IMG/VR virus record: IMGVR_UViG_3300031460_000001
Coordinates: 1-62,801 of that record
Source of the DNA: a virus
Taxonomy: Duplodnaviria; Caudoviricetes
Length of the DNA: 62,801 nucleotides
Reading direction: 5' to 3' (one strand)
This document shows positions 3,124 through 62,801 of the stretch, in pieces. A program made the translations under genes and the position numbers. Every line of letters begins with the position of its first letter. Position 1 is the first letter of the stretch. The notes under the pieces were generated by a model. The model saw only the letters and a list, made by a program, of their open reading frames with translations, was not told the origin of the DNA and ran no database searches.

Positions 3124-3351
3124 TCATGACGGCGTCTCCTGACGATCCTGCCAAGCCTTTGCCGCATTTTCAGCAGACGCCATTATAGGCGTCGCCACGT
3201 CGACAGCACAAAAGGGGTTACCGCAGGAGATGCGATGGTGCATGTCCGTGTCGCTGGTAGCCGATAACCGCATCTGTTGAATCGCTCGCGTACCACAGAA
3301 TGGACAAGTCTTCAGATCGTCCCGCTGGATAGTTTTTGCCCATTTGCTCAT
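3124..3351 (-). CDS. Lar-family (restriction alleviation) zinc-ribbon protein
   Basis: LKTCPFCG...ISCGNPFC...AAKAW pattern typical of Lar-like proteins. Confidence 0.65.
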   Translation of the reverse strand: MSKWAKTIQRDDLKTCPFCGTRAIQQMRLSATSDTDMHHRISCGNPFCAVDVATPIMASAENAAKAWQDRQETPS

Positions 3352-3668
3352 CGCTCGGTGCTCCCTTGGCTGGATGGAGCGGGTTCAGCTGCGCTGCTAG
3401 TCCCCTCTGCCGGAGCCGGGGCGGTAGCATAGGGGGACCCCGCCTTGCACTCTGTCTCGACGTGGCCGCTCATGTGCGCTATTTCGCGCAGTCGGCGTCG
3501 CGTCGCGGCCTGGGCCGCATCGCCCGTCGCTTCGGCTGGACGGGTGGCTGCCTCACGGATGGCGGCGGCCATCTCAGAGGGTAGGCTACGTCCATTTCTG
3601 GTGCATCCCTCGACGATCCGGGTAGCCTCTTCCAGCGCCTCACGGCGGACGGCGGCGGGGTCGGTCAT
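3348..3668 (-). CDS. Hypothetical phage early protein (paralog of 2560-3114)
   Basis: MTDPAAVRREALEEATRI...AIREAATRPAEATGDA. Confidence 0.55.
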   Translation of the reverse strand: MTDPAAVRREALEEATRIVEGCTRNGRSLPSEMAAAIREAATRPAEATGDAAQAATRRRLREIAHMSGHVETECKAGSPYATAPAPAEGTSSAAEPAPSSQGSTER

Positions 3669-9296: not shown

Positions 9297-9800
9297 CTAG
9301 AGCAGCATCTCGGCTTGATCTATCAGGCCCGGCGTATTCTCAAGCCGAATCCTCATAGCGGCAAGGGATACCCCGAACAGCCGGGCCAACACCTCATCCG
9401 AATGCCCTTTCCGGGCTTCCTGCCTTACCAACGATCTCGGCATGATGATATCGGCAGCCATGCGGTTCGCTTGCGTCTCGTAATGCCCGCTGATTTCGCT
9501 TCGATACATGGTGTCGTCGACTAGGCCCGACTCGATCAGGTCGCGATGCAGGATGTAATGCGCGATTTCGTGTGCCAGCGTGAACCGCTGACGGTTGCTG
9601 TGTTGCGTGGAATTGATGCGGATGAAGAAGCCGGATTTTGGGCTCTTGCGCCGATCCCGAATGATGTGGCCAGCGATGCCGTCGCCGAGGTCGGTGAACT
9701 CGACAGGGATATCCAGGTCGCGTGCGATCGCCTCCAGATTCACCGGGGCTCTGCCGGTGTACCTGCCCACGACTTCGAGAGGATTGACCTCATACCTCAT
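9297..9800 (-). CDS. ImmA/IrrE-family metallopeptidase
   Basis: RQRFTLAHEIAH (HExxH) and ETQANRMAADIIMP, plus C-terminal HTH-like LARLFGVS. Confidence 0.9.
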   Translation of the reverse strand: MRYEVNPLEVVGRYTGRAPVNLEAIARDLDIPVEFTDLGDGIAGHIIRDRRKSPKSGFFIRINSTQHSNRQRFTLAHEIAHYILHRDLIESGLVDDTMYRSEISGHYETQANRMAADIIMPRSLVRQEARKGHSDEVLARLFGVSLAAMRIRLENTPGLIDQAEMLL

Positions 9801-10197
9801 GACGACCCCCCGCTTGATGGGCGATGCTGTTGCCCTCGACGGATGGTGATTGCGCGGCTGCAGCGTCTTCGCGTGCACGGAAAATGGCGGGCTGCAGTTG
9901 ATCGTTGACGGCCTGCCTGACGATGCCTTCCACCATCTTGCGCCCCTCCGCGTATCCGAAAACCGCCACCGCCGCCACGCCGATCGAACCCAACCCTATC
10001 ATAACGCCAAGCGCCGTAAGCAGGATCGACACGAAATCCTTATAATCGACCGTGACCGGCACGACCGATCCGTGGCGATGGAAGACCGTCGTATGGCCGG
10101 CATCGCCTCTGAGAATGAGCCACAGCGACAGGATGCAGGACGATGCGCAACAGAGCGCGACGACGATCCAAAACCCCAAGCGCAACGCTTTGAGCAC
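9790..10197 (-). CDS. Two-TM membrane protein in the immunity operon
   Basis: Two hydrophobic stretches; lies between cI and immA. Confidence 0.65.
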   Translation of the reverse strand: MLKALRLGFWIVVALCCASSCILSLWLILRGDAGHTTVFHRHGSVVPVTVDYKDFVSILLTALGVMIGLGSIGVAAVAVFGYAEGRKMVEGIVRQAVNDQLQPAIFRAREDAAAAQSPSVEGNSIAHQAGGRHEV

Positions 10198-17931: not shown

Positions 17932-18494
17932 TGCGGGAGCTCCGGCCTCACCAAATCCAGGCTGAGCGATGGCTTCCCGTCGTCGGCTATGAGGGTTTGT
18001 ACGAGGTCAGCGACGATGGTCGAGTTCGGAGCCTGGACCGCGTTGTGGCCATGGTTTTCAACGGCAAGCCAGGAACACGGGTGTTTGTTGGCTGTATCCT
18101 GCGACCCTCTGCGCCGAAGGGTCGACGGCAGGTCATTCTGTACCGGGACCGATCCGAATCAACGCGGTCGATATCGCGACTGGTCTGCGAAGCGTTTCAT
18201 GGGTCTGCGCCGCTCGGCCATGAGGCCGCGCACGGCGATGGAAACACGCTGAACGATCATGCCTCAAATCTTCGCTGGGCTACTCACGAGGAGAACCTGA
18301 GCGACAAGGTAATCCACGGTACGGATCCTGTCGGCAGCCGCAACGGGCAGGCCAAACTGACTGAGCAGGAGGTCTCAGAAATCAAGGCACTTCGCGGACT
18401 TCGGTCACAGCGGCAAATTGCCGAACAGTTCGGCATACACCAGTCGGGAGTGTCCCAGATCTTGTCGGGCAAGATCTGGGGAGGCGCTCGATGA
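17928..18494 (+). CDS. NUMOD4-HNH homing endonuclease with C-terminal HTH
   Basis: ERWLPVVGYEGLYEVSDDGRVRS (NUMOD4); H.DGN..ND...NLRWAT..EN; IAEQFGI.QS.VS.I. Confidence 0.88.
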   Translation: MMRELRPHQIQAERWLPVVGYEGLYEVSDDGRVRSLDRVVAMVFNGKPGTRVFVGCILRPSAPKGRRQVILYRDRSESTRSISRLVCEAFHGSAPLGHEAAHGDGNTLNDHASNLRWATHEENLSDKVIHGTDPVGSRNGQAKLTEQEVSEIKALRGLRSQRQIAEQFGIHQSGVSQILSGKIWGGAR

Positions 18495-19948
18495 ACCGCA
18501 GTCTCTGGCCTCACCAAGTCGACGGCATCGCCATGCTCCGGCACTCACTCGGGTCGGGAAGGCGCCGTCCGATGCTCGCCTCGCCAACCGGATCGGGCAA
18601 GACCCTGCTGACGGCAGCCATCGTCGATGGCGCGCTTCGCAAGGGCAAGCGAGTTTGCTTCATCGTCCCCGCTATCTCGCTTATCAATCAGACCGTGAAA
18701 GCCTTCTACGACGAGGGCATTTCAGATGTCGGTGTGATCCAAGCATCGCACCCGATGACCAATCCGAGCCGACCTGTACAGGTCGCCAGCGTGCAAACCC
18801 TGCATCGTCGGGAGCGCCCTAAAGCCGATCTTTTCGTGATCGACGAGGCGCATATCCTGCACAAAACCCACAAGGATCTGCTGTCCGACGAGGCGCTTCG
18901 ATCGGTTCCCATGATTGGGCTTTCGGCGACTCCGTGGCGCAGGGGTCTGGGCAAATTCTACGACGACCTACTCGTCGTGACGACGACGCAGCGCCTTATC
19001 GACGGCGGTTTTTTGTCGCGCTTCAAGGTCTTCGCACCCTCCCATCCTGACCTCAGCGGCGTGCGGACGGTAGCAGGCGATTATCAGCAAGACGAACTCT
19101 CCGACGCGATGAACACCTCGCCGCTTGTGGCGGACGTGGTGAGCAACTGGCTGGCTAACGGCGAGGGCCGCCCGACGCTGTGCTTCGCGGTGGACCGGGC
19201 GCACGCAAAGCATCTCCAGGAACAGTTTCTCGCTGCCGGGGTGCCGGCTGGGTACATCGACTGCAACGTGGACGGGGAAGACCGCGAGCCGATCCTGAAG
19301 CAGTTCAGGCGCGGCGATCTGAAGGTGATCTGCAACGTCGGCACGATGACGACGGGTGTCGATCTCGATGTACGGTGCCTCATCTTGGCGCGCCCTACGA
19401 AAAGCGAATCGCTGTTCGTGCAGATTATCGGCCGCGCGCTCCGTACCGCGACTGGCAAGGATCACGCGATCATCTTCGACCATTCGGACACTCACGCCCG
19501 GCTGGGGTTTGTGACGGACATCCACCACGACAAACTTGATGACGGGTCCAGTCCAGGCGAGGCGAAGCCGCGACCGAAGCCGAAACCGAAGGAATGTCCT
19601 CAGTGTCATTTCCTTCGTCCGGCAAAGGTCTCACTCTGTCCCGCGTGCGGTTTCAAACCTGCTCGGCAATGTGATGTCGAGGTCGAGGATGGAGAGCTAA
19701 TCGAACTCGGCGCGGCCTCGCGAGAGAACCGCCACGCTGCCAAGGCCGAACAGCAGCGGTGGTTTTCCATGTTGCTCGGTGTCGCCGAGGCGCGCGGTTA
19801 CAAACCTGGATGGGCTGCAGCCAACTACAAGGATCGCTTCAAGGCGTGGCCTGATGGGCTCGACAAGCGCCCGTGCGAACCGAGCCCCGAAGTGGTGTCG
19901 TGGGTTCGCCACAAGATGATCCAGTTTGCGAAAAGGCGCGCCGCGTGA
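18491..19948 (+). CDS. SF2 DEAH-box helicase with zinc ribbon
   Basis: PTGSGKT; DEAH; SAT; TTGVD; QIIGRALR; CPQC...CPAC. Confidence 0.93.
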   Translation: MNRSLWPHQVDGIAMLRHSLGSGRRRPMLASPTGSGKTLLTAAIVDGALRKGKRVCFIVPAISLINQTVKAFYDEGISDVGVIQASHPMTNPSRPVQVASVQTLHRRERPKADLFVIDEAHILHKTHKDLLSDEALRSVPMIGLSATPWRRGLGKFYDDLLVVTTTQRLIDGGFLSRFKVFAPSHPDLSGVRTVAGDYQQDELSDAMNTSPLVADVVSNWLANGEGRPTLCFAVDRAHAKHLQEQFLAAGVPAGYIDCNVDGEDREPILKQFRRGDLKVICNVGTMTTGVDLDVRCLILARPTKSESLFVQIIGRALRTATGKDHAIIFDHSDTHARLGFVTDIHHDKLDDGSSPGEAKPRPKPKPKECPQCHFLRPAKVSLCPACGFKPARQCDVEVEDGELIELGAASRENRHAAKAEQQRWFSMLLGVAEARGYKPGWAAANYKDRFKAWPDGLDKRPCEPSPEVVSWVRHKMIQFAKRRAA

Positions 19949-57555: not shown

Positions 57556-58584
57556 GTGAGCGTCACCATGTCAGTTCAATCCGAAGTCGACTTCCTCACC
57601 GCCGGAATCGCAATGCTGCAACAGCGGCTTGCGCTCATCAGGACGCCAGCCTCGGCGTCCGTCCCCGTTCCGGCGAGGAAAGGCGTCCCCATCGCCTTTC
57701 CCGGCGTCAACATCGCCAGTGCCGAATTCGCGTCCGACAAGCTGCCCGGTACAATGGGGCAGACCTACCTCTATCCAGACGATTGGGTGATCACGCCATG
57801 GGCCGCCAAGGGCGTCAAGCTCGTTCGCATCCCGTTCCTGATCGAGCGGGTCCAGCCTCAGAACCATGGTGAGTTCTCCGCTCCCGACATCGCGGCGCTC
57901 GATCGCATCGTGGCGACCGCTGCAGGTGCTGGACTGACGGTCGTCCTCGACGCCCATAATTACGGACAGCGCGCCGGGGCCAAGATGGACGTCGATGACG
58001 CTCCGAACTTCTGGTGGCGCATGGCGACGCGCTACCGCGACGCTTCCAACGTCATGTTCGGCGTCATGAACGAGCCCTCGGCATGGTCGCCGACTGACTG
58101 GCAGGTGACGCTGCGCAAGTGCGTTCACGGAATCCGGGTCACCGGGGCAAAACAGACCATTATGGCGCCTGGCGCTGGCTGGAACGGCGCGCACGACTTC
58201 GTCACGGGCGGCAACGCCGCGGCGTTCACTGGCTTCACCGATCCCCACTTCATGATCGAGGTCCACCAATATCTCGATGGCGACAATTCCGGCTCGCATC
58301 TGCAAGAGTACGTCGCTGGCAAGGGCTCCAGTGTGTTAGCCGACATCACCGCATGGGCGCGATCCAAGGGTTTCAAGCTGTTCCTCGGGGAATTCGGCTT
58401 CGCCATGCCGGCCGGACAGGTCGAGGCGACCGCCATGCTGAAGTTCATGACGGACAACAGCGACGTGTGGACCGCTTATGCGATCTGGGCGGCCGGGCAA
58501 TGGTGGGGCGACTATGCGTTCAGCGTCGAGTCCGGCGTAACCGATAAGCCGCATCTGGCGGTCTTGCAGAGCTTCATAGCCTGA
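57556..58584 (+). CDS. Glycoside hydrolase family 5 (endoglucanase/cellulase-like)
   Basis: GVN.A.AEF; RIPF..ER.Q; LDAHNY; MNEP (acid/base Glu); EVHQYLD; LGEFG (nucleophile Glu); WAAG.WW.DY. Confidence 0.9.
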   Translation: MSVTMSVQSEVDFLTAGIAMLQQRLALIRTPASASVPVPARKGVPIAFPGVNIASAEFASDKLPGTMGQTYLYPDDWVITPWAAKGVKLVRIPFLIERVQPQNHGEFSAPDIAALDRIVATAAGAGLTVVLDAHNYGQRAGAKMDVDDAPNFWWRMATRYRDASNVMFGVMNEPSAWSPTDWQVTLRKCVHGIRVTGAKQTIMAPGAGWNGAHDFVTGGNAAAFTGFTDPHFMIEVHQYLDGDNSGSHLQEYVAGKGSSVLADITAWARSKGFKLFLGEFGFAMPAGQVEATAMLKFMTDNSDVWTAYAIWAAGQWWGDYAFSVESGVTDKPHLAVLQSFIA

Positions 58585-58874
58585 AGCTGTTCGTATCGCG
58601 TCGTGACCGATGCCAGCCTCGGCCTAGCGGTCGACGCTGTCACGTTCCAATGGGCATGACTTCGCAGTCGCACTAACATGCTCCAAGCCGATACCTACAC
58701 CTGCGCAAGCTGCCGGCGTGTGTTTCGGCCGGGCGATCACGATCGTGCCGCAGCCGAAGCGGTGCGGACCTGCGCTGGCGTCGCGCCCGAGGATTGCTCG
58801 ACCGTGTGCGACACCTGCTTCAACGAGATCTGGCTCGACGTGTTCGGCGTCAAGCCGCCGGGCGTAGTGCTGCA

Positions 58875-59702
58875 TTAGACCAAGGCCGCTTCGATCTCGG
58901 CAGCCAATGCAGGATGGCCGGCAATCCTAACGATTTCCGCCGCCCGCTTCGTCGCCGCCGCATAGGCAGGATGGGCTTTCAGTTTCGCCGCAGGGTCCAT
59001 GGGCGCCCGCTCGACGTGCTTGGCCGTGGCGCGGTCCTTCCCGGCCGCGCGAGCCTTGGTGACGGCTTCGGCGAGCACTTCCGTTGCTCTGGCATCATCG
59101 CCCTTGGCGGCCCGCATGGTGTCGATGGCGAGCCCGGCCGAGATGGTGCCGGCCTTGACCATGTCGGCCACGGGTTTCGGGGCCGCCCGCAGTTTGAGGA
59201 GGTCGGCGACGCGCTGGCGGGTCAAACCGACTTTCGCGGCGATCTCGGCTTCCTTCCATCCGAGGTCCATGAGCTTGGCGAAGACGTTGCCTTTCTCGAA
59301 GGGCTCAAGCGGCTTGCCCGAGTTCCGCACGATCTGGCTCAGGACCCGGTCGGCCTCGTTGGCGTGCTTTCCCTCGGTCTGGACGGGCACGGACTGGATC
59401 TTGGCACCGAGGACGTCCATGGCGTAGAGCGTCGCGGCGAGCCGCCTGTGACCGTCCGTGATGACCGGCACGCCGGCCCGCATGTAGACGGTGACGGCGC
59501 TCTTCACGCCGACTTCCGCTATGGACCGGGCGAGTTCGATGTCATCCGGGTCGGCGGGGTCGAAATCCTTTGTACGTGAATTCCACCCGGGGTCCACGGT
59601 GAGATCGCGCGGCGCCATGCGGAACAGGTCGACGCGCCCGAGCGCCATGTCCTGAATGCCGCGGGTCTTGGGCTTGGTGTCGGCGGGTTCGGCGCGGATC
59701 AT
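58875..59702 (-). CDS. ParB/Srx-like protein with HTH
   Basis: G.NSR; LA.SI...GV; TDGHRRL; N.GKPL.P.E; EIA.KVG.TRQ.V...L.L. Confidence 0.8.
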   Translation of the reverse strand: MIRAEPADTKPKTRGIQDMALGRVDLFRMAPRDLTVDPGWNSRTKDFDPADPDDIELARSIAEVGVKSAVTVYMRAGVPVITDGHRRLAATLYAMDVLGAKIQSVPVQTEGKHANEADRVLSQIVRNSGKPLEPFEKGNVFAKLMDLGWKEAEIAAKVGLTRQRVADLLKLRAAPKPVADMVKAGTISAGLAIDTMRAAKGDDARATEVLAEAVTKARAAGKDRATAKHVERAPMDPAAKLKAHPAYAAATKRAAEIVRIAGHPALAAEIEAALV

Positions 59703-59729
59703 GGGGTGGAGTCCTTGGGTGATCTGGGT

Positions 59730-59969
59730 TCACTTCATCCTCACGCCGTGCCCGCCCGAGCGCACGTCACCAGGATCAAGAAAGAGGATGCCGGCAGCAT
59801 CGAACGTCGCCTTGATCGCAGCAAGGTTTCGGGTCTGCATGTTCGGCATCTCGTCTACGGACTCGGCCCGCTGGACGGCAGCATATGAAAGGCCGCAGCG
59901 GTTCGCGAGATCGTGCGCCGACCATCTCAGCATCGCCCTCGCGGCGCGTATCTGTGCTCCCGTCAACAT
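59730..59969 (-). CDS. XRE-family HTH regulator
   Basis: MLTGAQIRAARAMLRWSA.DLA...G.S...V.RAE...AGI.F......G.GVR. Confidence 0.85.
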   Translation of the reverse strand: MLTGAQIRAARAMLRWSAHDLANRCGLSYAAVQRAESVDEMPNMQTRNLAAIKATFDAAGILFLDPGDVRSGGHGVRMK

Positions 59970-60092
59970 GCGTTCGGCTTCTAGCCGTGGTGTGTCTGGG
60001 GCGAAAGCTACATTCACTCGCATGGGCGCTGGGAACTCTGCAGAGGGCGCAGCCGAAAGACTCGATTGTGAGAGATTTTCTAGCTATTAGGC

Positions 60093-60121
60093 TTGATAAG
60101 ATAATTCATGCGCGATAAGTT
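60093..60121 (+). promoter_or_regulatory. Putative sigma70 promoter for the RAMP-like operon
   Basis: TTGATA-N17-TAAGTT in an AT-rich divergent intergenic region. Confidence 0.45.
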
Positions 60122-60192
60122 CTCAACTGCAAACGCAAGGGCAAGGGTTCATTGGGAGCCATGAAAGCCTCAACGCGGTGCAGGAGTGCCAC

Positions 60193-60954
60193 ATGGCTGC
60201 GAAGAAAGAGACCTTGAAGGCCGAACCGGCTAAGGGGGATACCGAGACCGTCCGAATCGCCTTGTCGAGCAAGCCGCTGTTCAAGCGTTTCACGATTTGG
60301 TTGGTCGGCGACACGCCGCTTATCACTCACGCTTGGTCGGAGAAGGCCCGTCGCGAGATGCTGGCGAAACAGGTGAAGGGCACCAAAGCCGGTAAGGAGG
60401 CCCGAGACCCCGAGAGCGATTTCGTCAACTCGCTCTACGACATGGATGGCGGCTACGGGTTCCCGGCCATGGGGTTCAAGAACTGTGTTCTTTCGGCTGC
60501 CCATAAGGACAAGGGCATCGCCCGTTCGGCCGTCATGTCGGCGCTGTGGATCGATGCCGATATGGTACGTGCTCGACCGGCTCTCGCCGGCGCAATCTGC
60601 GACATGCCGCTCATCCGCATCTACGGCTCGAAACCCGAGATGCGCGAGGACATGGTCAAGGTTGGCGCAGGGCTGAACAAGACTGCTTCGCTAGCGTACC
60701 GCGGGCAGTTCACGACATGGGCAATCCGGGTCACGGGACGTTTCAACGCTTCCGTGCTGACCGCCGAAGCGCTGGCGTTCCTCATTCAAGAAGCCGGGAT
60801 CTCCTACGGCCTCGGCGAATGGCGGAACGAGAAGAGGGGCGTTTTCGGCGCCTTCCATCTTGCCGATGCGAAGGAGGAAGCAGGATGGGAAGCCTTCGCG
60901 ATGGGTACGGGGCCGATGCCGTCCGCCGTGCCCTCCGCGATGGCTGCGGAGTAA
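60193..60954 (+). CDS. Cas7/RAMP-like RNA-binding protein (Vipr-like effector candidate)
   Basis: N-terminal beta strand I.LVGDTPLITH; FPA.GFK (RAMP 'P..s.KG' position); C-terminal G-rich loop AG.SYGLGEWR.EKRG.FG.F. No cas1/cas2/cas3 nearby. AGGAG RBS. Confidence 0.7.
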   Translation: MAAKKETLKAEPAKGDTETVRIALSSKPLFKRFTIWLVGDTPLITHAWSEKARREMLAKQVKGTKAGKEARDPESDFVNSLYDMDGGYGFPAMGFKNCVLSAAHKDKGIARSAVMSALWIDADMVRARPALAGAICDMPLIRIYGSKPEMREDMVKVGAGLNKTASLAYRGQFTTWAIRVTGRFNASVLTAEALAFLIQEAGISYGLGEWRNEKRGVFGAFHLADAKEEAGWEAFAMGTGPMPSAVPSAMAAE

Positions 60955-60960
60955 TCCATC

Positions 60961-61473
60961 ATGCCGACGTATAACTTCCGCGATGACGAGCCTGTCCGTC
61001 TCAAGGCATCCAAGAACGCTGATCCGCAGGTAATCGGCGATGCCCTAGAAGCCATTGCCAAAACGAACGGCGGTGAGATCGTACCGAAGGCGGTCGTCGA
61101 TGCTGCGCGGTCACCGAAGCACCCGCTGCACCCGCACTTCGAATGGGATGACAAGTTGGCGGCCGAAGCACACCGCCTCGACCAAGCCCGTAGCTTGATC
61201 CGTATCGTGCGGGTCGAGGATGCAAGCGCCACGGACGGCACAAGCAGGGCGTTTCTGTCCATCTCGGAAAAGGCCGGCACCTCCTATCGGTCACTCGCCG
61301 ACGTGAAAGCCAGTATCGGGATGCAAGACGCGATCCTGAAAGCGGCGGCCCGCGACCTGGACGCTTTTCAGCAGAGGTACCGAGATTTGACCGATATTTG
61401 TGAGTTCGTGAGCAAGGCCAAAGAGGCAATCACGCGCCGCCAAGAAAAGCAAAGCCAGCGTCGAGCGGCTTAG
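60961..61473 (+). CDS. Small helical partner protein of the RAMP-like gene
   Basis: VVDAAR....PLH..FEWDD..AA..HRL.QAR.LI; 6 nt after the RAMP-like stop and directly before the array. Confidence 0.75.
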   Translation: MPTYNFRDDEPVRLKASKNADPQVIGDALEAIAKTNGGEIVPKAVVDAARSPKHPLHPHFEWDDKLAAEAHRLDQARSLIRIVRVEDASATDGTSRAFLSISEKAGTSYRSLADVKASIGMQDAILKAAARDLDAFQQRYRDLTDICEFVSKAKEAITRRQEKQSQRRAA

Positions 61474-61480
61474 CATCAAA

Positions 61481-62049
61481 TGATTGGCAAGGCAGGCTTA
61501 GTGCCGCACGGCGCGACTCTGACAGGTACAGTTCTGAACTGAATGGCTGTCGTGGCGTGGCGAGTCAGCGCGTAGACTGGCAAGCTCAGGGGTGGATCGG
61601 TAAGGCAGTCTAGGCTGAGTCCGTCAAAGATCGGGTGAGAGCGTAACGGCGTCGTAAGTATTGGCGAGGCAGTCAAGTCAAGTTCCGTCGCGTCGCTTCG
61701 TGTAACGGCCTTGAGGTGTGAAGCAGTCGCGGGCTGTTTTGAGATGAAAAGTAGTGCAAGGCTGGGCTAGGCAAGGCAGTCTAGTCAAGGATCGGTAGGT
61801 ATCAGAACTTCTCGTATCTGACCGGATTAGCAAGGCAGGCACGGCGGGGATTAGCTTGTCGCGGTCAGTCAGAGACCGTCCCGCATCGGTAAGGCAGGCA
61901 AAGATAGGCGCTGTTCTGAATGTAGCGTTTAGTACGGTCAGTGATCGGCAAGGCAGTCAAGGTTCGGCACGTTTTTGATTTGCGGGGTCGAGCAAGTAGC
62001 GGATCTGCATCGCAAAGCAGTCATTGCTTGGCAAGTCGCCGCAGTGAGA
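61481..62049 (+). repeat. Non-coding pentamer-periodic array: 9 complete units plus 1 partial, each GGCA + 10-12 x (GGY-like triplet + NN); candidate guide-RNA array
   Basis: Unit starts 61491, 61545, 61604, 61668, 61722, 61775, 61834, 61893, 61952, 62016. Spacings are 54, 59, 64, 54, 53, 59, 59, 59, 64, i.e. 5n+4 except one. Confidence 0.88.
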
Positions 62050-62080
62050 CAACGTCCATTCGCTGTTAGGAAATGCGTAG

Positions 62081-62106
62081 CGGCCATCCTTCGGGGCGGC
62101 CGTTTT
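62081..62106 (+). terminator. Intrinsic terminator closing the array
   Basis: CGGCCATCC-TTCG-GGGCGGCCG-TTTT. Confidence 0.75.
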
Positions 62107-62121
62107 ATATGGAGTATCCCC

Positions 62122-62337
62122 ATGACACCCGACCTCAAAGACAGCCTCGACGCCGAGGCTTTCGCGACCGCGTGCGCGGCTGTGCCTGACGTGGATCCTG
62201 AACGGTTGCGTACCGCGATCAACAGCTACTGCGGCGACCTTCACCTCGCGATCCATCACGTTTACACCGAAGTCGAACTGACGCCCGAAGAAGTGCTGGA
62301 CGCTTTCCGGCCGCGCGACGTCACGGTGGAGTCCTGA
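62122..62337 (+). CDS. 71-aa acidic hypothetical protein
   Basis: GGAG RBS, ATG 62122; MTPDLKDSLDAEAF...LDAFRPRDVTVES. Confidence 0.65.
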   Translation: MTPDLKDSLDAEAFATACAAVPDVDPERLRTAINSYCGDLHLAIHHVYTEVELTPEEVLDAFRPRDVTVES

Positions 62338-62340
62338 ACC

Positions 62341-62581
62341 ATGCCAGATTTCGCCAAAGCCCTTGTGCTTGTCCTCAAATACGAGGGCGGGAAAGTCGAT
62401 AGAAAAGACGATCCCGGCGGGCGCACGGCCTACGGCTGCACACAGACAACTTTCGATGCTTGGTGCGGGTCGAATGCCGTAACTAAACGCGACGTGTTCA
62501 CGATCACGCCAGCCGAACTCGAGGCGATATATCACAATCGCTATGCTTCGGCGATCCGTTTCGACGATCTTCCCGAAGGTG
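62341..62581 (+). pseudogene. Glycoside hydrolase family 108 endolysin, truncated by IS
   Basis: VLKYEGG.V....DPGG.T.YG.T...IY...Y.......LP.GV, then an abrupt stop inside the IS end. Confidence 0.85.
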
Positions 62582-62801
62582 TGTAGGGCGGTGACAAAGC
62601 AGGCCACTGGAGCGCCGGCGAAGTGCTGACGCGGGCGGAGTAAAATCCGGCCAGTGGATAGGCTCCCGGTTTTGGGGGGGCCGGGGATGTTCGTCGTGGA
62701 GATCTACGCCGCCGTTCGGAAATTCGTGTTCATCGAAGGTCACAGCCGCCGGGAGGCCGCCCGGGTTTTCGGACTGAACCGCGAGACGGTGCTGAAGATG
62801 T
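62582..62801 (+). mobile_element. IS21-family insertion sequence, left end
   Basis: Terminal TGTAGGGCGG..., internal repeated GGCG-GTGACAAAGCAGGCCACTGG / GGCGGAGTAAAATCCGGCCAGTGG, followed by the transposase start. Confidence 0.8.
62687..62801 (+). CDS. istA: IS21 transposase IstA (5' part, runs off window)
   Basis: MFVVEIYAAVRKFVFIEGHSRREAARVFGLNRETVLKM, the N-terminal HTH typical of IstA. Confidence 0.8.
   Translation, partial: MFVVEIYAAVRKFVFIEGHSRREAARVFGLNRETVLKM

Follow-up and report, generated by a model that had tools for sequence, protein, structure and literature searches.

The closest described counterparts of the locus considered here are the VIPR systems, whose code was described in 2026 for phages of E. 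coli and Pseudomonas. As presented in the main text of a bioRxiv preprint (10.64898/2026.04.26.720920), a VIPR locus comprises a phage-encoded minimal RAMP (repeat-associated mysterious protein) known as Vipr, an accessory gene (vap) and vrRNAs of 9-16 GGY/NN repeats, where NN denotes two variable bases. The NN dinucleotides pair with double-stranded DNA by a '1 nt skip rule', the skipped base usually being the wobble position of a codon, and the targets lie in competing phages, prophages and satellites. The same text reports that perturbation of NN pairing abolished silencing, that no self-targets were seen at an NN match of 80% or more, and that a survey found 664 VIPR loci of seven types; it mentions staggered vrRNA arrays and relaxed consensus sequences (NNNGG, YNNNG, NNNNG) for other VIPR types. 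A structural preprint (10.64898/2026.04.26.720927) assigns one protomer to each repeat and, in its main text, identifies the residues responsible for holding G1, G2 and Y3 as well as the skipped target base, whilst a third, as far as its main text goes, deals with satellite competition (10.64898/2026.10.15.759431). Here we analyse a 62,801-nucleotide (nt) stretch of DNA from a tailed phage (Duplodnaviria; Caudoviricetes; positions 1 to 62,801 of IMG/VR record IMGVR_UViG_3300031460_000001), referred to in full as the window. Judged from its sequence, the segment 60107-62114 is very probably a complete phage VIPR cassette, in which a vipr gene and an accessory gene are followed by nine to ten vrRNAs in a staggered array and then by a terminator (Table 1).

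The first gene of the cassette encodes a protein that can be compared directly with the Vipr of Escherichia phage SUSP1. The SUSP1 accession given in the third preprint, NC_028808.2, encodes a 195 amino acid gene product (YP_009199429.1) flanked by (NNGGT)n arrays. Its translation carries H17, K33, E71, M72, R138, C173, D177, W178 and R179 as named in the structural preprint, and from this coincidence of residues we take YP_009199429.1 to be the characterised SUSP1 Vipr. A profile built from 34 homologues of the window protein aligns with it over 177 columns (hhalign probability 98.0%, E 1.7e-13), pairing H51 of the window protein with H17 of SUSP1, K67 with K33, R175 with R138, E214 with D177, W215 with W178 and R216 with R179. 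These six residues, named in the structural preprint as contacting G1, G2, Y3 or the target backbone, are therefore kept or conservatively changed. R175 and R216 do not vary at all among the 34 homologues, and conservation is 90% or higher at G211, G213 and E214.

An AlphaFold 2 (AF2) model of the 258 amino acid protein has a predicted local distance difference test (pLDDT) score of 81, with a poorly modelled thumb (below 50 for residues 132-140). The top Foldseek matches of this model are to Csm3, Cas7 and Cmr proteins (best E 2.5e-4), and the first 36 rows returned by VIA-align are all CRISPR (clustered regularly interspaced short palindromic repeats) RAMPs, the best with a Z of 9.6. The database-cluster form of the protein is 253 amino acids long, which suggests that translation starts at an ATG five codons downstream of the GTG at 60178. 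Searching genome contigs with the single Vipr protein returned one distant locus only.

Two observations concern the annotation of Vipr homologues elsewhere. One homologue, P0027, is extended at its N-terminus by 140 residues with a high content of G, A, R, K and W (columns 1-140 of the 34-homologue alignment), a stretch that reads like a translated upstream pentamer array, and gene callers can thus swallow vrRNA arrays into open reading frames (ORFs). Homologues labelled 'hypothetical protein' are present in at least 32 records of cultured actinophages, 5 from Gordonia and 27 from Mycobacterium.

The array downstream of the two genes consists of abutting units of 54-65 nt, each of which is a run of pentamers in which NN is followed by a G-rich triplet. 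Each unit was taken to run between the C residues of two successive AAGG-C motifs, with anchors at 61489, 61543, 61602, 61666, 61720, 61773, 61832, 61891, 61950 and 62014. Each unit holds 11-13 pentamers, and the unit spacings of 54, 59 and 64 nt are all equal to 4 mod 5, the sole exception being the irregular 53-nt unit U5. At every unit boundary the register moves by one base, neighbouring units overlapping by 1 nt (AAGG[C]AGKC), and it is because of this shift that both a plain period-5 Fourier test over the whole array and Tandem Repeats Finder came up blank. A legend and the Methods of the VIPR preprint describe such a 1-nt overlap for staggered arrays, and a relaxed GG consensus, in other VIPR types.

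The pentamer register was measured with a statistic that scores G at triplet position 1 and G or T at position 2, taking the best phase per 30 nt. For 61482-62030 its value is 9.10, compared with 7.25 +/- 0.15 (maximum 7.68) in 1000 dinucleotide-preserving shuffles (z = 12.3), and tiles from the array are the top register scores in the window. The signal is strand-specific, falling to 5.82 on the reverse complement. An independent dynamic-programming parse gave the same register as the initial annotation, which had been made by a model from the letters and a list of ORFs alone and had written out dinucleotide strings for eight units (U1-U4 and U6-U9). All eight strings are recovered letter for letter, starting at 61498, 61552, 61611, 61675, 61782, 61841, 61900 and 61959, and each is different from the others, as had been claimed.

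Across the 79 pentamers of these eight units, the two NN columns are near random (entropy 1.95 and 1.86 bits). Within the triplet, G makes up 50 of the 79 bases at position 1 (63%); position 2 is G in 53 (67%) and T in 23, so that 76 (96%) carry one or the other; position 3 is G in only two (97% non-G) and A in 28. The first pentamer of each unit (CA-GKC) and the last two (TY-GGY, AA-GG) are conserved, and the conservation extends no further than a ~16-nt punctuation sequence, GATYGGYAAGGCAGKC. Since the terminal pentamers are punctuation, the number of variable dinucleotides per unit is 8-10, rather than the 10-12 that the strings as first written out would imply. With up to one mismatch allowed, the punctuation motif GGYRAGGCAGKC occurs 16 times in the whole window, seven of these inside the array (six exact), whilst shuffled windows have a mean of 3.53 matches and none of 100 shuffles reaches 16. 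Further, degenerate copies of the punctuation are present in the array. The repeat is not palindromic, and a search of Rfam, including the hammerhead families, found no family at E up to 5 inside the array, the sole listed match being a chance-level one outside it. Other candidate identities for the array (RNA bound by a ring protein in the manner of the trp RNA-binding attenuation protein TRAP, a CsrA sponge, a G-quadruplex array, and a pac or partition site) were considered and dropped on the evidence.

The three-part arrangement extends well beyond the window. Thirteen viral contigs encode a homologue of the accessory gene, and in all 13 it directly follows a vipr homologue. A pentamer-periodic, G-rich array lies downstream in 11 of the 11 loci inspected (L007 and L008 share the coordinates and scores of L006); most of these arrays are plain (NNGGC)n and one is (NNGGA)n. 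G+C-rich inverted repeats, which when read by eye resemble terminator hairpins and are comparable to the one in the window, follow the arrays of L003, L004, L009 and L013. A scan for two punctuation motifs 45-60 nt apart identified 119 further viral stretches, 45 of which carry a homologue of one or both genes, the others being short contigs or unrelated coding repeats. In the loci fetched, 115 of 171 adjacent AAGGCAGKC pairs are spaced 4 mod 5; the 1-nt overlap of staggered arrays accounts for this spacing here as it does in the window. Over 101 distinct family units (859 pentamers), the NN columns have an entropy of 1.97 and 1.98 bits; G stands in 77% and 78% of cases in the two columns that follow, and the fifth column is C in 54% or T in 24% (78% together). 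Columns that are random at NN and G-rich thereafter reproduce the NN/GGY pattern of the literature and confirm that the initial annotation chose the correct bases as variable. An array of this kind is also found in a cultured phage, Gordonia phage Ecliptus (OP820472.1; L173), where a (NNGGY)n array with GGCAGG punctuation occupies 3197-3457, between genes 19 and 20 and beside a vipr homologue. In three further loci (L038 1816-3360, L039 7816-9350 and L073 6094-7638) the punctuated array separates the vipr gene from the accessory gene instead of following the pair.

Of the viral loci fetched, L001 has the nearest homologues of both vipr and the accessory gene (71% and 58% identity), and as its triplets are relaxed to a similar degree, the relaxation appears to be a trait of the clade. 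Closer still are the contigs of a related phage that shares ~93% identity over vipr and vap (106 differences in 1446 nt) and whose homology to the window begins at 60107 and ends at 62114, after the terminator. This relative keeps U1, U3 (13 differences in 74 nt) and U7 (2 in 59), as well as U9 with its trailer (61950-62114; 6 differences in 165 nt plus one inserted base). U2 is replaced, with 122 nt in place of 48 nt, as are U4-U6, with 109 nt in place of 157 nt, and U8 is missing altogether, leaving a clean 59-nt skip between anchors, from 61890 to 61950. Replacement and loss with unit precision argue that guides turn over as whole units.

The initial annotation proposed that the strings are read against targets as NN-x-NN-x, with every third base skipped, and that recognition could in this way ignore codon wobble positions. 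The gapped-target idea is already in print, though it was reached in this case from sequence alone. Targets were sought by exact-pattern scans of public collections, the pattern for U3 being its ten NN separated by one skipped base (20 specified bases). This pattern has 19 exact matches in the viral contig collection, whilst an order-reversed U3 control has none there. Eighteen different 29-mers are represented among the 19 sites, which lie on contigs of 26-65% G+C and have flanks with no relatedness in their DNA (median identity 0.31). At each of the nine skipped positions, 2-4 different bases are seen. Every one of the 19 is antisense to the guide and inside an ORF, with NN at codon positions 1 and 2 and the skipped base at position 3, as the proposal had anticipated. 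All encode RFTVAHE[FL]GHY, which contains an HExxH motif, and the five target proteins tested all belong to Peptidase_M78 (IrrE/ImmA-like). In one target contig (L142) the matching gene directly follows an XRE-type regulator gene, of the HTH_3 (helix-turn-helix) family. Pairing of an XRE-type regulator with an ImmA/IrrE-type protease is usual and is linked to prophage induction. The flanking CA and TT dinucleotides of the U3 unit are unmatched at the sites, hence the guide corresponds exactly to the variable part of the unit. On this sequence evidence, U3 appears to be aimed at the catalytic HExxH stretch of M78 peptidase genes in other phages.

The phage also has an M78 gene of its own (ORF 9297-9995, minus strand), with the motif RFTLAHEIAHY. 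This gene contains the only site in the window that matches U3 with three or fewer mismatches, none of 100 shuffles giving any such match. The three mismatches lie in separate dinucleotides and all are non-synonymous (V to L, F or L to I, and G to A). Besides the M78 gene, the only gene common to the window phage and the U3-target loci is one for a 485 amino acid superfamily 2 (SF2) helicase (18491-19948; ResIII and Helicase_C domains), found in eight of the 19 loci at 27-31% identity.

For the remaining guides the enrichment seen with U3 was not repeated. The large-collection scans were for exact matches at a 1-nt skip and covered six guides and one control, five of the guides in the viral collection and U2 in metagenomes. 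In viral contigs U9 (20 bases) and U8 have no matches, U7 has one, in a Mu-like major head gene, and U6 has two, in a DUF2201 gene and in a gene of a giant-virus metagenome-assembled genome; all three of these are in wobble phase. U2 has 16 heterogeneous matches in metagenomes (a histidine kinase, luciferase-like monooxygenases and one phage integrase among them), with six of the 16 in wobble phase. The counts for U2, U6, U7 and U8 are compatible with chance for 18-base patterns. Other gap sizes, which the initial annotation had also raised, fared no better: with gaps of 0-2 and up to two mismatches the eight window guides have no match in 1.27 Mb of related viral DNA, and in the local sequence as a whole (about 1.3 Mb) the only perfect matches at any gap size are trivial self-matches at gap 3. 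Nor do the other window guides match the 19 U3-target loci (0.2 Mb) at any gap size. Ninety-eight guides from related arrays, run at gap 1 over the 1.27 Mb, gave 1, 6 and 100 matches at 0, 1 and 2 mismatches, compared with 0, 7 and 124 for shuffles, and on the U3-target loci they likewise gave no excess over order-shuffled guides. An 8-NN guide from another viral contig (the L132 unit at 535) has one exact match (16 bases, 1-nt skip) in a different viral contig, on the plus strand of L130 at 6574; the chance expectation of such a match across 98 guides on 2.5 Mb of strands is about 0.06.

Table 1 Features of the predicted VIPR cassette and of the sites related to guide U3 (coordinates in the window)
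Feature	Coordinates	Strand	Remarks
Upstream cassette edge and presumed promoter region	60107..60177	+	Contigs of the relative alignable from 60107, unrelated sequence before
vipr gene, minimal Cas7-like RAMP	60178..60954	+	ORF opens at GTG 60178; 258 amino acids
Accessory (vap-like) gene	60961..61473	+	170 amino acids; apparently winged-helix-like N-terminal domain and long C-terminal helix
Staggered vrRNA array	61482..62030	+	Pentamer units, head-to-tail
U1	61493-61547	+	
U2	61547-61606	+	
U3	61606-61670	+	
Guide part of U3	61611..61657	+	Ten NN: TA TG CC AA TC TG GC AC GT AA
U4	61670-61724	+	
U5	61724-61777	+	Irregular, 53-nt spacing
U6	61777-61836	+	
U7	61836-61895	+	
U8	61895-61954	+	
U9	61954-62018	+	
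Degenerate trailing region after last (AAAG-CAGTC) punctuation	62018..62078	+	Weak pentamer register
Intrinsic-terminator-like hairpin	62079..62108	+	TTCG loop, then TTTT; fold -16.7 kcal/mol
U3 near-target in the phage's own Peptidase_M78 gene	9556..9584	+	17 of 20 specified bases match

How might such a cassette work? The anatomy of the sequence, the homology with SUSP1 Vipr, the three-part synteny, the gapped-match enrichment with its codon phase and the whole-unit turnover in the relative come directly from the present analysis; transcription, RNA processing, filament assembly, DNA binding and silencing are taken over from the preprints. By analogy with SUSP1, transcription of the array would accompany or follow that of the two genes, and the transcript would be processed to RNAs of about 55-65 nt. 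Each pentamer would be bound by one Vipr protomer, which would grip its G-rich triplet and leave its two variable bases available, and the 8-10 free dinucleotides would pair with double-stranded DNA, skipping every third target base, such that the bound gene would be silenced. U3 would thereby be directed at the sequence for the HExxH motif (FTVAHE[FL]GHY) of ImmA/IrrE-type M78 genes in other phages. As the skipped base is the wobble position, synonymous changes could not free a target from such a guide. It is possible, if rather less than probable, that a VIPR guide in this clade in effect reads an amino acid motif and not a single rival genome: U3, pairing with codon positions 1 and 2 alone, could then silence M78 genes in phages that are unrelated to each other, three non-synonymous changes near the active site (L, I and A) would be all that spares the phage's own M78 gene, and the Vipr of this clade would read a looser RNA code than the SUSP1 protein.

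The cassette and the type II VIPR of SUSP1 share a homologous RAMP in which the residues contacting G1, G2, Y3 and the backbone are kept, a two-gene operon with RNAs of pentamers carrying two free bases downstream, and target matching within a gene of another phage, in its coding sequence, with the wobble base as the one that is skipped; no requirement resembling a protospacer-adjacent motif (PAM) was seen here. They differ in the form of their RNAs, which are units of 55-65 nt with a 1-nt overlap here and ~100-nt RNAs, each with a pseudoknotted tail, in SUSP1. The host here is also other than E. coli (61.8% G+C, rock-metagenome runs), and its single identified target is a motif of M78 peptidases, not a satellite recombinase or cI/cro-type regulators. 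More distantly, the Cas7 filaments of Class 1 CRISPR systems (Csm3, Cmr4 and type I Cas7) have the same RNA recognition motif (RRM) core fold with a glycine-rich loop and the same assignment of one protomer to a fixed RNA step, with a thumb that periodically breaks the guide-target duplex. Their step is 6 nt with one flipped base, however, as against 5 nt here, where three guide bases are kept from pairing and one base of the target is passed over, and the present locus has neither a palindromic repeat nor genes for large or small subunits. Pfam and PHROGs returned no Cas families for the genes in 57556-62586, although no dedicated search for cas1 or cas2 was made.

A number of results weigh against assigning the locus to the VIPR systems, or against the scheme drawn from them. 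The triplet is relaxed to G-(G/T)-(not G), rather than GGY, and its third position is rich in purines (A in 28 of 79), at odds with the SUSP1 pocket, which is described as accepting pyrimidines only. The accessory protein has no homology to that of the SUSP1 neighbour gene vap1 (hhalign probability 0.3%). No conserved 3' tail structure was found in the array, and folds of single units have no structure beyond that of shuffles (z -0.1 to -1.2), though a legend of the VIPR preprint describes staggered arrays that lack tails in other types. Of the six guides scanned, all but U3 lack a target above the chance level. The match of U3 to the phage's own M78 gene, at 85%, is above the 80% level used for calling targets in the main text of the VIPR preprint, which reports no self-hits there. 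Finally, the run listing contains no RNA runs with the locus.

The last but one of these points leads to an alternative in which the locus is still a VIPR array but U3 serves to tune the phage's own lysis-lysogeny switch through its M78 gene at 9556-9584, rather than to attack rivals. The quality and uniqueness of the self-match within the window speak for it, as does retention of the U3 unit in the related phage. On the other hand, there are exact 20/20 targets in 19 other viral contigs, the mismatches in the phage's own site, being spread over separate dinucleotides and amino acid-changing, have the look of escape from its own guide, and conservation of the motif makes every M78 gene a near-match. 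The loss of silencing on NN perturbation and the lack of self-targets at 80% or above, as given in the main text of the preprint, point the same way, and we consider self-regulation unlikely. Still less likely is that the array is decaying and non-functional, its relaxed triplets a product of erosion and the U3 match a relic. Triplet G frequencies below those of the wider family (63% and 67%, versus 77% and 78%), the irregularity of U5 and the trailing region, and the five guides lacking a clear target would all fit with decay, but the vipr and vap ORFs are intact with key residues kept, L001 shares the relaxed triplets, and the punctuation is exact in six units. A 20/20 match at 19 independent sites would be unexpected of drifting sequence, and the unit-precise gains and losses between ~93% identical relatives suggest ongoing turnover.

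Two further explanations dispense with VIPR altogether. The array could be a set of protein-binding DNA sites: iterons, a packaging site, or a site at which the nearby ParB-like protein acts in partition. In its favour, a motif of 12-16 bp recurs in direct orientation at regular spacing, and a ParB-like gene lies 1.8 kb upstream. Against it stand the strand-specific register signal and the 5-nt periodicity with two unconstrained bases per repeat; moreover, the array always follows the Cas7-like gene, with or without ParB, and one unit, read by its variable bases with a 1-nt skip, matches a foreign gene. We therefore regard this explanation as highly improbable. Least credible of all is a CRISPR-like mini-array with ordinary contiguous spacers in the ~45-nt inter-repeat stretches. 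Its attraction lies in the repeat-spacer-like anatomy, the unique inter-repeat sequences and the RAMP gene alongside, but those inter-repeat stretches are pentamer-periodic, with three of every five positions constrained, a blastn search of 60961-62340 against 50,697 phage records found no match, and the concatenated NN strings (gap 0, up to two mismatches) were without a match in the 1.27 Mb. The non-palindromic repeat is a further objection, and no cas1 or cas2 turned up, albeit in analyses that included no search dedicated to them. Assignment of the locus to the VIPR systems remains the reading we prefer.

The second gene of the cassette encodes a protein that matches phrog_15946, a family of unknown function. 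Its AF2 model is of high pLDDT (93.5), and Foldseek gives weak matches (E 0.1-1) to forkhead, MecI/BlaI and ArsR winged-helix proteins, so that the N-terminal domain of the model appears winged-helix-like. The C-terminal helix (119-169, 50 residues) matches coiled coils with Z of about 6, and the VIA-align list is swamped by them.

At the edges of the cassette, no sigma-70-like site was found on the plus strand of 60107..60177. The trailing region after the last punctuation is possibly a last, eroded unit. The energy of the terminator-like hairpin is unexceptional relative to shuffles (z -1.25), and the hairpin was missed by a consensus terminator scan because of an internal mismatch. Beyond it, the array, which follows the 170 amino acid ORF, is bordered by a small ORF and an endolysin fragment. 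The small ORF (62122-62337, 71 amino acids) has no Pfam or PHROG match and is absent from the related phage, in which the terminator region is joined to the endolysin gene through seven other letters; from its sequence it looks like an inserted or deleted moron. The GH108 endolysin ORF ends after 81 amino acids (62341-62586), and a new ORF opening at 62654, which may resemble the N-terminus of a transposase, runs off the end of the window. The contigs of the relative part from the window at about 62390, and 62341-62801 looks, on sequence grounds, like a disrupted lysis gene at the end of the contig.

On the other side, a ParB-like gene (58875-60023, minus strand; phrog_1033, E 2e-49) and a small HTH gene lie just upstream of the cassette, in divergent orientation. 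They are placed outside it because the sequence of the relative differs upstream of 60107. Further upstream, a 342 amino acid ORF that follows tail-fibre-like genes (57556-58584) belongs to the GH5 cellulase family (E 2.4e-39) and is possibly, to judge by this family assignment, a virion-associated depolymerase.

Taken together, these results indicate that a gapped, wobble-skipping code can be recognised from raw sequence in an uncultured phage, along with a concrete natural target. The main texts of two of the three VIPR preprints, which were searched without their supplements, make no mention of M78, ImmA, IrrE or peptidases. Relative to the main texts of the preprints, the locus would add a guide against a catalytic motif common to very different phages, a paralogue in the carrier itself that is three bases away from being a target, and the replacement of guides unit by unit at ~93% identity. 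There is also a practical message for annotation, since gene callers sometimes translate such arrays and the vipr homologues of the cultured actinophages mentioned above have gone unannotated. If guides such as U3 do act on a protein motif in the tentative manner outlined here, the relaxed G-(G/T)-(not G) scaffold would also point to a less strict RNA code for the Vipr of this clade than for the SUSP1 protein, in which third-position purines are excluded from the pocket, and the arms race between these phages would be fought at the level of protein sequence, with the carrier's own enzyme constrained as a result.

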